From IMG/VR virus record IMGVR_UViG_3300045988_149737: a DNA stretch of 64,000 nucleotides; one strand, written 5' to 3'. Below are positions 498 to 58,446 of the stretch, piece by piece. Position 1 is the first letter of the stretch; the number at the start of each line of letters is the position of its first letter. The notes under the pieces were generated by a model. It did no database searches. It saw only the letters and a list, made by a program, of their open reading frames with translations, and had not been told where the DNA came from. Both the position numbers and the translations under genes were made by a program. The DNA comes from a virus. Taxonomy: Duplodnaviria > Heunggongvirae > Uroviricota > Caudoviricetes.

Positions 498-666
498 TAT
501 AAGATTAACTGAGATATAGCTTACGCAAAGAAGGCAATAAATATAAAGAGAGATGTTCTGAGGTAATTTATTGTTGGTGTTTAAGTTTATTTACAGATAG
601 GTAAGTGCATACCTATATAAAAAAGATAAAATGTGATATAAATCCGCCATCCCGATTTGACTTTTC

Positions 667-1002
667 ATGGAGGAAAATATGTCGAACGAGATGGCGGGCG
701 TAACAACAGAGCAAGTTGAGCGCATTGCCGCGATCGTTGCTCGGGAGGTTGTCGGCAAATTAGGTAAAGAGCTACGTGAAGAAATTGGCCAGGAGGTTAA
801 CGATCAGCTGAAAACCTACTTTGGTGATATGACCCCGGCGCAACATAGTATTCAACACTCCAATCTGGACAAACTCCTTAACCGGTTGGACTCCATCTCA
901 AGTGGGTTCTTTGGCGGCATTGTTTCTAAAATAACGTCGTTCATTATTACTGCACTGCTTTTGGGGTTAGCCGCGTATGGCGTAAAAAGTGGACTGCAAT
1001 AA
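667..1002 (+). CDS. C-terminally membrane-anchored protein, lysis-associated candidate
   Basis: RBS GGAGGA before ATG; soluble N-terminal part then C-terminal TM FIITALLLGLAAYGV; immediately precedes endolysin candidate. Confidence 0.45.
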   Translation: MEENMSNEMAGVTTEQVERIAAIVAREVVGKLGKELREEIGQEVNDQLKTYFGDMTPAQHSIQHSNLDKLLNRLDSISSGFFGGIVSKITSFIITALLLGLAAYGVKSGLQ

Positions 1003-1015
1003 CAGGAGATCAAGG

Positions 1016-1708
1016 ATGAAGACTCCGAGAGGCATTCGTAATAATAACCCCGGTAATCTTGATAAAGGATCACCGTGGCAAGGTCTGGTTGCGAATCCAG
1101 ACGAACCGCGCTTTTGCACGTTTAAAGACCCTGTTTGGGGGATTCGCGCGCTGGCGGTGACTCTAATTACCTACCACGATAAACGTCGCGCAAAAGACGG
1201 CACAAGTATCGATACCATTCGTGAAGTTATTGAACGCTGGGCACCGCCGAATGAAAACAATACTGACGCCTACATTAATGAGGTGTCTAAAGCCGTTGGT
1301 GTAACCGCAGACATGATCATCGATCTGCATGATTACGACATCCTTCGACCTTTGGTTGAGGCAATCATTCGCCACGAGAATGGCCGAGGCCCGCTAAAAA
1401 CGCTGAACACCTGGTATGCAGCAGAAGTTATTGAGGAAGGTCTGCGTCGAGCTGGCGTTGTTAAGCCGGTGAAAACCGTGAAGGCTGTTCCTGTAACTAA
1501 AGAAACCGCAGGCGCAACTGTTACAGCAGGTATTGGTCTGGCGCAGCTGGCCGATGTTATGCCGCAGGTTTCCGCTGCTATGGATAAAGCACAAGGTCAT
1601 ATCTCTAGCGGGGATACAGTACGCATCATCTTCGGTATTGCCACTATTGTTGTGGCAGGATTCATTGCCTGGTCGCAGGTAAGAAAACACCAGAAAGGGA
1701 TGGTCTAA
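1016..1708 (+). CDS. putative muralytic/lysis protein (endolysin candidate) with C-terminal hydrophobic segment
   Basis: AGGAG RBS 7 nt before ATG 1016 (track start 989 probably too early); N-terminal RGIRNNNPGNL...W.G motif; position directly upstream of spanin pair. Confidence 0.4.
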   Translation: MKTPRGIRNNNPGNLDKGSPWQGLVANPDEPRFCTFKDPVWGIRALAVTLITYHDKRRAKDGTSIDTIREVIERWAPPNENNTDAYINEVSKAVGVTADMIIDLHDYDILRPLVEAIIRHENGRGPLKTLNTWYAAEVIEEGLRRAGVVKPVKTVKAVPVTKETAGATVTAGIGLAQLADVMPQVSAAMDKAQGHISSGDTVRIIFGIATIVVAGFIAWSQVRKHQKGMV

Positions 1709-1709
1709 T

Positions 1710-1961
1710 ATGCTAGGCAGCCTGATGACAAAGCTAAAAGTTGCTTTGATTACGCTGGCTGCCGTTCTTTTCGTTCTGGTCGGCGCTTACACGATGGGCG
1801 GAAATGCGGCGCGACGAGCAATGGAAGAGAAGGCAAAACAGGAAGACAGGAAACGACTTCAAAACACAGTGAAAGTGGTGAATGAGACGAGCAGTAAAAT
1901 ACGTCAGAAAGATGCTTCTGCCGTTCATCGTGAGTTGTATGATAAGTGGGTGCGTCATTAA
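1710..1961 (+). CDS. i-spanin-like (Rz-like) protein
   Basis: N-terminal TM then charged helical region; overlapped by a lipoprotein ORF in another frame. Confidence 0.5.
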   Translation: MLGSLMTKLKVALITLAAVLFVLVGAYTMGGNAARRAMEEKAKQEDRKRLQNTVKVVNETSSKIRQKDASAVHRELYDKWVRH

Positions 1962-55697: not shown

Positions 55698-55979
55698 ATG
55701 GCATACGGTACAGGGATTTACAACAATAAAGGAATTAACGTTACTGGCTTCCTTACTCCTATTTTTTTTCTTGATCGATTTACTGCGTCATCAGGCTCTA
55801 AGACGTACTCCAATCCGCCACCGGGTAAATCGCTACATGCCGTGTGGTCATTGATGCCTCTTAACAACGACAACTACATTAATTTACCTGTTCCAACAGT
55901 TACTATTAATGGAAATACGGTTAGTTGGTCAAATTTATATACGGGGCTTGGTTCTTACATATACACATACTGGGGATAA
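55698..55979 (+). CDS. hypothetical S/T/N/Y/G-rich protein
   Basis: RBS AAGGATGA; 93 aa; compositionally distinct AT-rich segment. Confidence 0.4.
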   Translation: MAYGTGIYNNKGINVTGFLTPIFFLDRFTASSGSKTYSNPPPGKSLHAVWSLMPLNNDNYINLPVPTVTINGNTVSWSNLYTGLGSYIYTYWG

Positions 55980-55981
55980 TT

Positions 55982-56596
55982 ATGTTCGGGATGTCAATTA
56001 CTCAATCAGATGGAAGTTTGTGGATGAGTCCAGAATTTACTCCGCAAAATCTGATTAATAAAGGGACAATGTCTACATCTAAAGGTTCTGTTTTTCAAAC
56101 ATCAATCCCATCAAACAAATCATGCTTTTTCTTCATAAAAAGCAGTAATAAGGCGAACATGATGTTTATTCATGAGCATAGTAACGGATACAATGCTCTC
56201 AGATTGCATCAGGTAAATGGTAGCCCCGGAACAATAACAGTTTATGCTTTTTCTGATATGGTGTTACCACATTCTGGCTATGGCATTGCCATGTATAACA
56301 GCGCAGGCGCAATGGTGTATCACGGTGAGATGATGCCCCTTGATGCGAAACTTATCACTATTTCTGACCCTCAATTTACAATAGATATGGGGTATCCATG
56401 TGCGGTAATGCCTGCTATGGTTGGGGTATATAACTATAGACGAACCGATTACGACAGACCTGTCTATGTAACAATGACAGGTGCAACTGGAAACCAAGTA
56501 TATAACGGTCAATGGTATTCCGGTAATGTCACATGGGATATTAAGAAGATTTATACAAACAAAATTCTGGTGATAAATACCTCCAAGTATGATTAG
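55982..56596 (+). CDS. hypothetical beta-rich protein
   Basis: Track ORF 55925..56596; ATG 55982 after GGGGATAATT; about 205 aa. Confidence 0.4.
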   Translation: MFGMSITQSDGSLWMSPEFTPQNLINKGTMSTSKGSVFQTSIPSNKSCFFFIKSSNKANMMFIHEHSNGYNALRLHQVNGSPGTITVYAFSDMVLPHSGYGIAMYNSAGAMVYHGEMMPLDAKLITISDPQFTIDMGYPCAVMPAMVGVYNYRRTDYDRPVYVTMTGATGNQVYNGQWYSGNVTWDIKKIYTNKILVINTSKYD

Positions 56597-56699
56597 CCAA
56601 TGCCTTTATTTGAAGGATTGCCTGTTTATTTCTATTTAGTACCTTTTCATTTTTGAAATAATTGCACCATTAAACAAATCACTTCTTAATGGTGCAATT

Positions 56700-58385
56700 A
56701 TGAATACAGCCCTTTCCATCATCGACGATGCCAACTCAAACACTGCTATCGACTATCGGCAGGAAATGAACGTCATCCACGAAATTGTGGCCGAGTGCGA
56801 GAAAGAGATCGCCTTCATGTATCAGGTACACGACTTCGTTTATGGCGACGAACGCCACAACATGATTAATCGCCTGCTGAGACTAAACCATCGACCAGAT
56901 GAAGATCGCTCGCGTTTAAATCGAGGTTGGTTGGATAAAGTCGATCTGGAATGGGTGAAACAGAATATTTGGGCCGAGTACTGGAGGAAGGTCACGGACA
57001 TGACTAACGTTTTGCTGATCATGCCAGCTTCCCGTCGAGATGAGTGGCGCGAGCAGTTTATAGAGGGCAAACAGGAAGTCATCAAAACTGACAGAACCGG
57101 CTACCAGATGAAGGTTAAAGAGTTCGTTGGTGTACCGGAGTTCAAAGCAGAAACGGTCATACCCACGATGCTTAATTTGCTGAATGACAGGCACAAATAT
57201 CTCTCTGAGCGCGTGTATGGCTTGTTTAAGGCGCTGAGTCCTGCGCACAAGACAAATAAGACAAACGGTTTCAGCGAACGTCTGATAATCGCTGACTGCA
57301 TTTCTGATTTCTGGCGGGACAGCGTTAGTGTGAACTATCGCAAAGAGGACTATATCGACGATCTGCGTGTCTTGCTTCATTTCTTCGCGCACAAAGAATT
57401 TATTACCATCAACCGCACTGCTGAGGTGCTATCAGCTGCGTATCGGGCAAACGACTGCCAGACCGGTGACTGGATGAACGTCGATGGAAATCTGATGCGC
57501 GTGAAGATGTTCAAGAACGGCAACGTTCACTTTGAAATACATCCTGACGTGGCCTGGAAGTTGAATGAGGTGCTGGCTTACAGTATGCCTGCTGCAATCC
57601 CCGCGCCATGTCGCACCGCGCCAAAAACACGGGCACCAAAGCAGTTCGGGTTAATCCAGAAGACGATCTCCGTGCCGGTTCGCACTGCGCTTCGTGACGG
57701 GCGATTGAGCAAAGACAAAGGCGTATGGTACTTCTCTGATTCAGCTCTCCAGAAGTCGCAGGTGGAAGAGCTTGAGCGCACACTGAGCTTCATTGGCGGC
57801 GTGCAGGAGAAAAAGCACTGGCAGTTCCCGTATGACATCGTCCATACGCTAAATACGATTGTGGCTACCGGTTTAATACCGGATACAAAATCACACCAGT
57901 TCTACCCTACCCCACGCTTGATTGCTGAGTACGTTGCCAGAGCCACTGAATTGAAGCCTGGTGAGAAGCTGCTGGAGCCTCAAGCCGGACGTGGGGATCT
58001 TCTGGCCTATATTAACGCCGATCTGGAAGATGTTACCTGCATAGAAATCGCACCTCTCTTCGCTGATATCCTGCGTGGAAAAGGGTATACGAACACGATT
58101 TGCTGCGACTTCATAAAGTGGTCTGAGGACAACGTAGGTTATCAGTTCGACAAAATCGTTATGAACCCGCCGTATTCGCTTGGTCGTCATAGAGAGCACA
58201 CGCTGGCTGCGCTGGGGCATCTGAAAGTCGGCGGGCGTCTTGTAGCAGTATTGCCGGGCACTGCGCCAATACTGGACTGGATGACGATGGATAATTACGT
58301 TTATGCCAGAGGGAAGTCGTTTACCAACGAGTTTGAAGACACAGGGATCACAGTCAGCGTATACGTTTTCAAACGCGTTAAATGA
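56700..58385 (+). CDS. SAM-dependent amino-methyltransferase with large N-terminal domain of unknown function
   Basis: C-terminal motif I EPQAGRGDL and motif IV NPPY (IVMNPPYSLG); 561 aa. Confidence 0.55.
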   Translation: MNTALSIIDDANSNTAIDYRQEMNVIHEIVAECEKEIAFMYQVHDFVYGDERHNMINRLLRLNHRPDEDRSRLNRGWLDKVDLEWVKQNIWAEYWRKVTDMTNVLLIMPASRRDEWREQFIEGKQEVIKTDRTGYQMKVKEFVGVPEFKAETVIPTMLNLLNDRHKYLSERVYGLFKALSPAHKTNKTNGFSERLIIADCISDFWRDSVSVNYRKEDYIDDLRVLLHFFAHKEFITINRTAEVLSAAYRANDCQTGDWMNVDGNLMRVKMFKNGNVHFEIHPDVAWKLNEVLAYSMPAAIPAPCRTAPKTRAPKQFGLIQKTISVPVRTALRDGRLSKDKGVWYFSDSALQKSQVEELERTLSFIGGVQEKKHWQFPYDIVHTLNTIVATGLIPDTKSHQFYPTPRLIAEYVARATELKPGEKLLEPQAGRGDLLAYINADLEDVTCIEIAPLFADILRGKGYTNTICCDFIKWSEDNVGYQFDKIVMNPPYSLGRHREHTLAALGHLKVGGRLVAVLPGTAPILDWMTMDNYVYARGKSFTNEFEDTGITVSVYVFKRVK

Positions 58386-58446
58386 TAGGTAAATACTTAC
58401 CTAATTTGTGTAAGAATGTAGTTACTAAACGATAAGAGAAAAACAC

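Follow-up and report, generated by a model that had tools for sequence, protein, structure and literature searches.

A dispersed 20-bp palindrome at gene boundaries of an SSU5-type phage-plasmid, a probable operator of the element's own repressor

A palindrome family at gene boundaries

We analyzed the 64,000-nucleotide stretch of the viral record IMGVR_UViG_3300045988_149737 (the whole stretch is hereafter called the window), in which an AT-rich palindrome recurs between genes. The window is part of an SSU5-type phage-plasmid: an 8-kb probe from it shares 98.8% identity with Escherichia phage Cyrano (pLF82, OV696614) and 76% nucleotide identity with Salmonella phage SSU5. Cyrano 26655-89758 is collinear with window 595-64000, with few segments replaced. 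The window covers the lysis, plasmid maintenance, replication, recombination and nucleotide metabolism modules; nearly all lytic genes are on the plus strand, and the toxin-antitoxin genes, RepA and a putative repressor are on the minus strand. Coding sequence accounts for 84% of the window, and its intergenic DNA has a GC content of 41%.

The unit of the family is a 20-bp palindrome made of ATAGGTAAGT and ACTTACCTAT, that is, two ATAGGTAAGT half-sites head to head. Positions 2-3 (TA) and 5-7 (GTA) are near-invariant, as are their mirrors 14-16 and 18-19; position 4/17 is G/A (C/T), and the central 4 bp are only loosely T/A. In the window, the 9-mer with at most one mismatch occurs 28 times against 8.5 expected, and the 20-mer with at most three mismatches in its 16 outer positions occurs 15 times against 0.12 in shuffles. 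A position weight matrix (PWM) gives 26 matches of at least 10 bits at 19 distinct places, compared with 0.31 expected from whole-window shuffles. Eighteen of these places are intergenic, where shuffles of the intergenic sequence alone predict 0.085, and the lone coding match scores 10.5 bits. Because the PWM was trained on the very sites that it then scores, cleaner tests are provided by the count based on consensus mismatches and by the shuffles restricted to intergenic sequence. The full, independently annotated genome of Cyrano contains 34 PWM matches against 0.5 expected; 32 of the 34 are in non-coding DNA, which makes up 13% of that genome, and these lie in plus-strand gene arrays save a weak copy beside the repressor gene. 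As TAG and TAA occur within the motif in two frames, a degree of depletion from coding sequence is automatic, but this does not account for the absolute excess of sites in spacers.

An earlier sequence-only reading had proposed a family of such palindromes placed just after stop codons or shortly before starts, and had called for a count of the motif in coding versus intergenic sequence. That count, given above, bears out the enrichment at gene boundaries, and the placement agrees as well, with distances of -3 to 41 nt from the upstream stop (11 sites) and 2-63 nt to the next start (12 sites). The nine main sites that it listed are all present, two of them with adjusted limits: at 26423-26451 the family member is 26431-26450, and the outer GATAGAT arms do not belong to it, while the copy placed at 46364-46379 has its best register at 46360-46379. 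Among its two weaker copies, the one at 19841 is a genuine, weaker site, and the one near 9648 reduces to a lone half-site. The list was also incomplete, having overlooked 5347, 31217, 33170, 36970, 46227 and a weak variant at 17180.

We describe the sites together with their promoters, all of which are predictions from consensus matches and conservation. The highest-scoring site, ATAGGTAATCACTTACCTAT (51199..51218, 29.6 bits), lies at the promoter of an adenine-methyltransferase gene. There, a terminator is followed by TTGCCA, 17 bp and TGnAAAAAT, which reads (TG)cAAAAAT in the window; the palindrome begins at the last two nucleotides of the -10, spans -8 to +12 and ends 11 nt before the ATG. 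The thyX site (46360..46383, 22.2 bits) can be read as ATGAATAAGTAATTACTTAT in register or as the 16-bp perfect palindrome ATAAGTAATTACTTAT. It lies 12-16 nt before the GTG start in a layout like that of the methyltransferase, and in relatives a clade-dependent TAAAAT or TATAAT -10 adjoins its left edge. At nrdA, ATAGGTAAGTGCTTATCTAT (41654..41673, 28.1 bits; SSU5 67775) forms the spacer of the promoter TTGATA-17-TAATAT and spans -32 to -13. In the same region (41654-41718), the predicted nrdA start is inside the left arm of a hairpin at 41680-41701, the terminator of the upstream operon; this hairpin would stop read-through from that operon and not transcripts from the predicted nrdA promoter. 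A similar layout, palindrome then hairpin, is also found after the capsid gene in Cyrano and SSU5.

At 31217, 8781 and 26431 the palindrome likewise fills the spacer, and its last TAT starts the -10. The first of these, ATATATAAGCACTTACTTAT (31217..31236, 22.6 bits; SSU5 55695), follows a RecA-like gene and its terminator and constitutes the spacer of TTGAAA-17-TATTAT (-29 to -10). The second, ATAAGTAGATGATTACTTAT (8781..8800, 22.5 bits), lies between the primase gene and gene 8842..9618, spans about -40 to -21 and is followed by the extended -10 TGTGAGAAT. The third, ATAAGTAAGTACTGATCTAT (26431..26450, 22.3 bits; Cyrano 52659), separates a UvsY-like gene from an SSB gene.

The palindrome ATAGGTAAGTGCATACCTAT (597..616, 28.9 bits; Cyrano 26657, SSU5 27474) is 63 nt upstream of the holin gene, with a conserved extended -10 (TGaTATAAA) 30 nt downstream of its centre, and it spans about -52 to -33. 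At 58385..58404, ATAGGTAAATACTTACCTAA (28.0 bits) begins at the stop codon of a DUF4942 gene and spans -39 to -20; a conserved extended -10, TGTAAGAAT, follows 5 nt downstream, and palindrome and -10 are kept even where the downstream gene has been replaced. The site ATAAGTAAGTAACTACCTAC (5347..5366, 24.5 bits; SSU5 33600) is 13 nt upstream of gene 5379..6119, and a conserved TTCCAA-17-TATCAT upstream places it at about +7 to +26. A further site, ATAGGTATATACTTACTTAT (36970..36989, 27.7 bits; SSU5 63080), lies 113 nt upstream of an SbcD-like gene.

The site ATAAGTATTTACTTACTTAT (12134..12153, 26.4 bits) is 11 nt past the stop of gene 11833..12123; TTTACT within its right arm, 17 bp and TAAGAT give a span of about -42 to -23, and SSU5 has the identical 20-mer at 41773. 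Downstream of it is a tRNA cluster at 12902-13555 with four genes (Asn, Tyr, Thr, Ser); Cyrano has three tRNA genes and SSU5 one. At 53415..53434, GTAGGTAAGTGTTTACCTAT (26.8 bits) overlaps the stop codon of an RNase H-like gene, and a conserved TTTACC in its right arm, 17 bp and TATCTT put it at -46 to -27. Between this promoter and gene 53564..54058 is a long conserved leader (53450-53560) with three or four hairpins, at least one of them with compensatory changes between clades (GTGTC/GACAC versus GTACC/GGTAC). It has no Rfam match and may be an undescribed cis-regulatory RNA or small RNA.

Weaker members are ATAAGTAACTACTTACCATA (19840..19859, 16.4 bits), between cobT-like and cobS-like genes, and the operator-like GTAGGTAGTTATCTATCTAT (46227..46246, 17.9 bits), 3 nt past the stop of a MazG-like gene. 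The lone half-site ATAGGTAAGTAC (9652..9671), 2 nt before the start of gene 9674..10156, has a degenerate right half and five mismatches to the consensus, and falls below the PWM threshold. Finally, ATAAGTTAGTATCTACCTAT (33170..33189, 20.7 bits), which SSU5 carries as an identical 20-mer at 58074, stands 19 nt beyond a stop codon, with the next start 2 nt further on. Like the Cyrano sites at 2020 (terminase/portal junction), 9018 and 15529, it lies 2-20 nt from its flanking genes without a convincing promoter. These junction sites could be roadblocks to transcription, and 33170 is a candidate of this type.

Across these sites the register varies (-8 to +12, -32 to -13, -39 to -20, -46 to -27), sometimes by only 1-3 bp. 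This variability fits occlusion by a repressor, as at LexA boxes, and not an activator of fixed geometry, and the several near-consensus promoters would need no activator. A promoter scan of 40-60 kb returned only six plus-strand candidates, two of which are the nrdA and methyltransferase promoters on palindromes.

Some other inverted repeats of the window are distinct from the family. A 58-nt hairpin occurs twice, at 5206-5262 and 51846-51903, with a stem of GCCTGCTTCTGTATAT and ATATACGGAAGCAGG, an AT-rich top and then a U-run; the copies share their first 24 nt, fold at -30 and -28 kcal/mol (z about -7) and are probably strong terminators. We dropped the weak PWM matches at 5229 and 51858 from the family, as they are the AT-rich tops of this duplicated hairpin. 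Just downstream of the RepA gene (34404..35459, minus strand), overlapping palindromes at 34125-34152 and 34245-34262 contain the DnaA-box-like TATCCACT and the pair TGTTAGTGA and TCACTAACA, and may be part of the plasmid origin.

Conservation of the sites and independence of their arms

The motif is found at orthologous junctions of SSU5, including terminase/portal, after the capsid gene, and before the holin gene, the SbcD-like gene, nrdA, thyX and the methyltransferase gene, among others. As further relatives we used 80 loci from IMG/VR that surround the gene for the adenine methyltransferase, whose identity at the protein level runs from 100% down to 61%. The palindrome is kept about 11 nt before the methyltransferase start codon in 57 of 57 distinct upstream sequences. 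The other sites of these 20-kb loci are kept too, with slight clade-specific drift (variants beginning ATAGGTAG and ATAAGTAA). The sites thus hold their position across genera, and the flanking sequence diverges.

A syntenic phage-plasmid of Acinetobacter baumannii (L087, NZ_CP035046) carries a related but distinct palindrome, composed of TCAGTCAGT and ACTGACTAT. Copies at positions 2957, 9424, 16896, 26774 and 31974 of this plasmid occupy orthologous junctions and lie inside -35/-10 spacers, where the palindrome again ends in the TAT of the -10. The site at 2957 is upstream of the SbcD homologue, corresponding to window 36970..36989, and the one at 16896 is between the cobT-like and cobS-like genes, corresponding to window 19840..19859. 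In the immunity region, between the repressor gene and a divergent gene, variant copies with 4-5 mismatches are present at 19480 and 19869.

Exact matches to the core pattern numbered 49 in 185,579 species-representative genomes (596 Gb), which is not above chance; more than one match was seen only on two plasmid-sized Kluyvera contigs and one Furfurilactobacillus plasmid. The motif therefore belongs to the element family and not to its hosts. Sites of host factors (LexA, Fur, TyrR) are ruled out by this result and by sequence; the SOS box of LexA, CTGT-N8-ACAG, differs from the motif, and genuine LexA boxes are found elsewhere in the window.

Among 127 unique 20-mers, the paired fraction equals the expectation for independent arms at all ten arm positions (for position 4/17, 0.75 observed and 0.73 expected). 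No compensatory changes were seen between the arms of these 20-mers, and a G-to-A change in one arm is unmatched in the other. Their mean minimum free energy (MFE) as hairpins is -3.5 kcal/mol, with some sites at 0; energies of -6 to -10 kcal/mol (z-scores of -1.8 to -3.3) are attained by the best copies only. That the arms vary independently and the half-sites are kept as sequence points to a duplex DNA site bound by a dimer, and not to an RNA hairpin. The sequence-only reading had judged the stems unlike classical terminators, and we agree: the palindromes have neither a stable GC-rich stem nor a consistent T-run, and true terminators stand beside several of them.

A candidate repressor and its locus

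To find the binder we screened the small proteins of Cyrano with regulatory potential. The candidate, encoded at 16765..17151 on the minus strand, is a homologue of CYRAN_45: a 128-aa XRE-family helix-turn-helix (HTH) repressor. Its gene converges with an integrase-like gene (15667..16770, plus strand), the two 3' ends overlapping by 6 nt. The protein matches Pfam HTH_19 and PHROG 8, and consists of the HTH domain and a helical C-terminus, with no S24 domain. A sequence search against the PDB returned nothing, and only the fold search was informative. The AlphaFold model (pLDDT 81) matches, in Foldseek, C-proteins of restriction-modification systems, HigA, SinR and the DNA-binding domains of P22 c2 and 434; the E-values are only about 0.01, and the matched proteins are all dimeric palindrome binders.

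Homologues of the repressor are carried on 865 SSU5-like plasmid records, almost always beside the integrase-like gene. These include pHCM2, pMT1 and plasmids of Klebsiella, Enterobacter, Cronobacter and Acinetobacter, and the long contigs with the repressor in a large protein collection are mostly of about 100-116 kb; the repressor is restricted to this family. The segment GYKNxNNLSLIKSGKIPLP, in the HTH, is nearly invariant among homologues of 55-70% identity, in parallel with the near-constant operator. The Acinetobacter homologue has GFKRPNVLSMIKSGETRLP in this helix, alongside the altered half-site of its plasmid. In the transcriptome of the LF82 lysogen, the repressor gene is among the few Cyrano genes expressed (PMC9928086).

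The predicted promoter of the repressor gene has a -35 TTTACA (17220-17225), a 16-nt spacer and a -10 TAATAT (17198-17203). On it lies the weak variant at 17180..17199, TCTGGTAAGTGCTTACTGAT (ATCAGTAAGCACTTACCAGA on the minus strand), which follows the pattern ATC(A/G)(G/A)TAAG-NN-CTTACCA(G/T)A with the core GTAAG-NN-CTTAC. It starts from the last AT of the -10 and spans -8 to +12 as at the methyltransferase promoter, scoring 7-14 bits. Promoter and site are kept in five genera, represented by E. coli, pHCM2, pMT1, Klebsiella and Cronobacter. A perfect lone half-site, ATAGGTAAG, and the everted pair CTTACCATAG and TATAAGTTAG also occur, at 17300-17308 and 17365-17390, in the spacer that separates the repressor gene from a divergent 70-aa gene (17403..17615); they are not conserved in the other genera.

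Upstream of the integrase-like gene (region 15580-15670), a canonical LexA box, CTGTTTACTTATACAG at 15623-15638, comes right after TTGATC-17-TAATAT and 29 nt before the gene; this promoter and box are kept in pHCM2, pMT1 and the Klebsiella and Cronobacter plasmids. The predicted promoter would drive the integrase-like gene into the 3' end of the repressor gene, and would thus send antisense transcripts through the repressor gene upon SOS induction. Ciprofloxacin induces Cyrano, and a cleavage domain is lacking in the candidate repressor; the arrangement suggests SOS-driven antisense transcription as an induction route. A second canonical LexA box, CTGTATGTATATACAG, lies at 63519-63534, 18 nt upstream of a plus-strand gene (63553..63942) for a 129-aa S24 peptidase that is UmuD-like by PHROGs.

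Readings of the sites and comparison with known systems

We consider it probable, if some way from assured, that the element's own repressor (with the XRE protein of 16765-17151 as the likeliest candidate) uses the sites as operators on sigma-70 promoters of lytic genes, a minority perhaps being roadblocks. We observed directly the motif and its enrichment, the retention of the sites at their positions, the independent variation of the two arms, the overlap with conserved promoter hexamers and the copy at the repressor promoter; binding by a protein, repression through that binding and the identity of the protein are what we infer from them. A dimeric regulator encoded by the element would bind the palindromes as double-stranded DNA operators. 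Each site would lie on or beside a sigma-70 promoter core, with a few in very short co-directional gene junctions, and together they would head almost every transcription unit of the plus-strand lytic array. Occupied sites would block binding of RNA polymerase or its escape from the promoter, and at junctions lacking a promoter the bound protein may act as a roadblock to read-through. The replication, nucleotide-metabolism, lysis and structural genes would then stay silent during the plasmid prophage state, and the XRE repressor would damp its own promoter through the weaker copy.

Several points weigh against this reading. SSU5 lacks the whole segment from the tRNA genes to cobT, including the integrase and repressor genes, yet keeps high-quality sites, and the copy at the repressor promoter has ATC instead of ATA at otherwise near-invariant positions; together these leave room for another binder. 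A recent deletion giving SSU5 a lytic form, or a different, conserved binder, would both fit the retained sites. In the most divergent clades (L071-L085) the repressor is unconfirmed, as scans with the peptide pattern and with the back-translated HTH recovered close clades only. None of 13 other lysogen-expressed Cyrano genes, mostly on the minus strand, is closely preceded by a strong site (CYRAN_81 comes nearest, with a 10.3-bit match 161 nt upstream of it), but as an argument for repression this is weak, at about P = 0.08. The site at the holin promoter is centred near -42 of a conserved extended -10, a classical activator position, and the promoters on which the operator reading leans are themselves predicted from consensus and conservation.

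Another regulator of the element might use the same operators: one of the small conserved winged-helix-like proteins (window 11472..11687, or the CYRAN_123 homologue, which lies outside the window) or a lytic timing factor, which, like P1 Lpa or Mu Mor/C, might work at middle and late promoters as an activator or dual regulator. We regard this as unlikely. In its favour, the winged-helix-like proteins are kept between Cyrano and SSU5 (70-89% identity) as the motif is, and the XRE repressor is not. The holin site, at its activator-like position and with no -35 element, would suit such a factor, as would several promoters that have an extended -10 only and the distribution of sites over the DNA-metabolism and structural modules, with none in the small-gene block at Cyrano 85-105 kb. 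Activation is not expected, however, from sites at -8 to +12, as in the methyltransferase, thyX and repressor promoters, or from one in the spacer of the near-consensus nrdA promoter, and the distance to the -10 shifts by 1-3 bp among otherwise similar promoters. The winged-helix-like genes moreover have no motif copy of at least 10 bits at their own promoters, and their products have no Pfam DNA-binding match. We find it improbable that the sites serve to organise, partition or globally silence the plasmid through a nucleoid-type or ParB/KorB-like protein, on the model of the KorB OB regulon of IncP. Sites do spread over the whole replicon, and Cyrano encodes two proteins with a ParB-N domain, the first of which has an 18-bit site 18 nt upstream of its gene. 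But only the ParB_N domain is detected in them, with no recognisable HTH; their genes follow an operator on the lytic strand and are absent from the set expressed in the lysogen, and the sites follow promoters and gene junctions without a centromere cluster. We therefore set these ParB-like proteins aside as binders.

Two further readings dispense with a DNA-binding regulator. The palindromes could act as AU-rich RNA hairpins, serving RNase processing, RNA stabilisation or weak termination, or being bound by an RNA-binding protein, as many of them fall between a stop codon and the next start and the best copies fold measurably. The family does encode a possible partner, a 173-aa FljA-like protein of the Flag1_repress family (FljA, the repressor of phase-1 flagellin; E = 1e-80) with a weak Hfq-like match. 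We nevertheless find the RNA reading very unlikely, and rejected it for hairpin, terminator and processing site alike: A-C and other mismatches are as frequent as independent arms predict, folding is weak on average, neither an Rfam match nor a U-tract is present at the palindromes, and at several promoters the conserved -10 puts the predicted start within the palindrome, so that only one arm would be transcribed. The sequence-only reading had offered operators or processing sites; its first option gains in silico support from half-sites kept as sequence, from sigma-70 overlap and from the copy at the repressor promoter, and its second is not supported. The symmetric half-sites, which argue for double-stranded DNA, also speak against the FljA-like protein as the binder; the fliC leader has a vaguely similar ATAGGATAAC. 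The gene of this protein lies outside the window (Cyrano 100780..101301; L002 40780-41301), its SSU5 copy is 78% identical, and it may target flagellin expression of the host. Lastly, the intergenic DNA is AT-rich, and the motif includes -10-like (TAT) and -35-like (TTTACC) pieces, as would be the case for palindromes that arose by chance or from promoter-like composition and have no dedicated function. This explanation is hardly credible, being contradicted by the 18 intergenic matches where intergenic-only shuffles give 0.085, by the conservation before the methyltransferase gene and by site positions that persist across genera despite diverging flanks.

Returning to repressor operators, we compared the system with known ones. 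C1, the repressor of P1, has 283 aa and no relation to the XRE HTH proteins. P1, like the present elements a phage-plasmid of about 100 kb, has one repressor for many single scattered operators, as predicted here (22 in P1, about 25 in Cyrano), including one of its own gene; the C1 operators have the asymmetric 17-mer consensus ATTGCTCTAATAAATTT (PMC8546580), in contrast with the 20-bp palindrome of other sequence found here. P1 also controls its late genes through Lpa and not directly, whereas here the lysis and structural modules carry sites too. The annotations of Cyrano and SSU5 list no C1 homologue, and no search aimed at C1 was made. We rejected a general layout like that of the P1 late promoters (an inverted repeat centred at -22, with the -10 formed from the last TAT of the palindrome), as there is no single fixed geometry: a subset of sites conforms to it (31217, 8781, 26431 and 33170, and those of Acinetobacter), but the methyltransferase, thyX, Ead-like and repressor promoters do not.

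The repressor gp71 of the cluster A mycobacteriophage L5 has more than 20 sites, in promoters and in short intergenic spaces genome-wide, much as here, and is proposed to stop both initiation and elongation; these stoperators are asymmetric 13-mers, bound by a monomer and orientation-dependent (PMC9283540). The L5 monomer has two DNA-binding domains and acts in one orientation, while the sites described here are palindromic with statistically equivalent arms; such symmetry implies a dimer, as predicted for the XRE protein, and no orientation dependence. Mycobacteriophage D29 retains stoperator sites, which would parallel SSU5. D29 is a lytic deletion derivative without the repressor (PMC5712189). 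With the CI/Cro-type repressors of lambdoid phages (lambda, 434, P22 c2) the system would share an HTH dimer, a palindromic operator of 14-20 bp over the -35/-10, an autoregulated repressor and a divergent immunity region. It differs in having single dispersed operators and a candidate without S24, where the lambdoid phages have tandem arrays at OL/OR only and S24 self-cleavage. KorB of IncP plasmids recognises about a dozen copies of the OB palindrome, on promoters or far from them, and globally silences the backbone genes. One palindrome in many copies around a plasmid is common to both, but KorB is a ParB-family protein with the 13-bp GC-containing palindrome TTTAGCSGCTAAA, unlike the 20-bp AT-rich site here. 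On these comparisons, the system would share the logic of P1 and L5 but belong to neither, the candidate XRE protein being unrelated to C1 and to gp71. We found no description of the motif in the literature that we searched on SSU5, pHCM2 and Cyrano operators, promoters or palindromes, and the operator system is apparently undescribed.

A bolder form of the repressor reading, which we hold as possible but doubtful, would be a symmetric stoperator system. In it, a 100-kb phage-plasmid would be kept silent by one small XRE dimer that covers about 15-20 promoters and, at junctions without a promoter (terminase/portal, 33170), forms bidirectional roadblocks; convergent, LexA-controlled integrase transcription, and not cleavage of the repressor, would throw the switch. 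The operator code would be shared among plasmids of E. coli and Klebsiella, pHCM2 of Salmonella Typhi and pMT1 of Yersinia pestis, which, if true, would imply homoimmunity among these plasmids.

Enterobacterales commonly carry SSU5-like phage-plasmids, with pHCM2, pMT1 and many Klebsiella and E. coli plasmids among them, and the family is clinically widespread. The literature that we searched held no description of how their lytic genes are silenced or how they are induced. The principle of one repressor with many operators is known from P1 and L5, so that the finding is useful and not surprising in principle. A 20-bp operator with a named candidate repressor would allow promoters and operons to be mapped over a 100-kb genome that otherwise lacks annotation, would predict immunity groups across genera, and may explain SSU5 as a lytic derivative that arose by deletion of the repressor.

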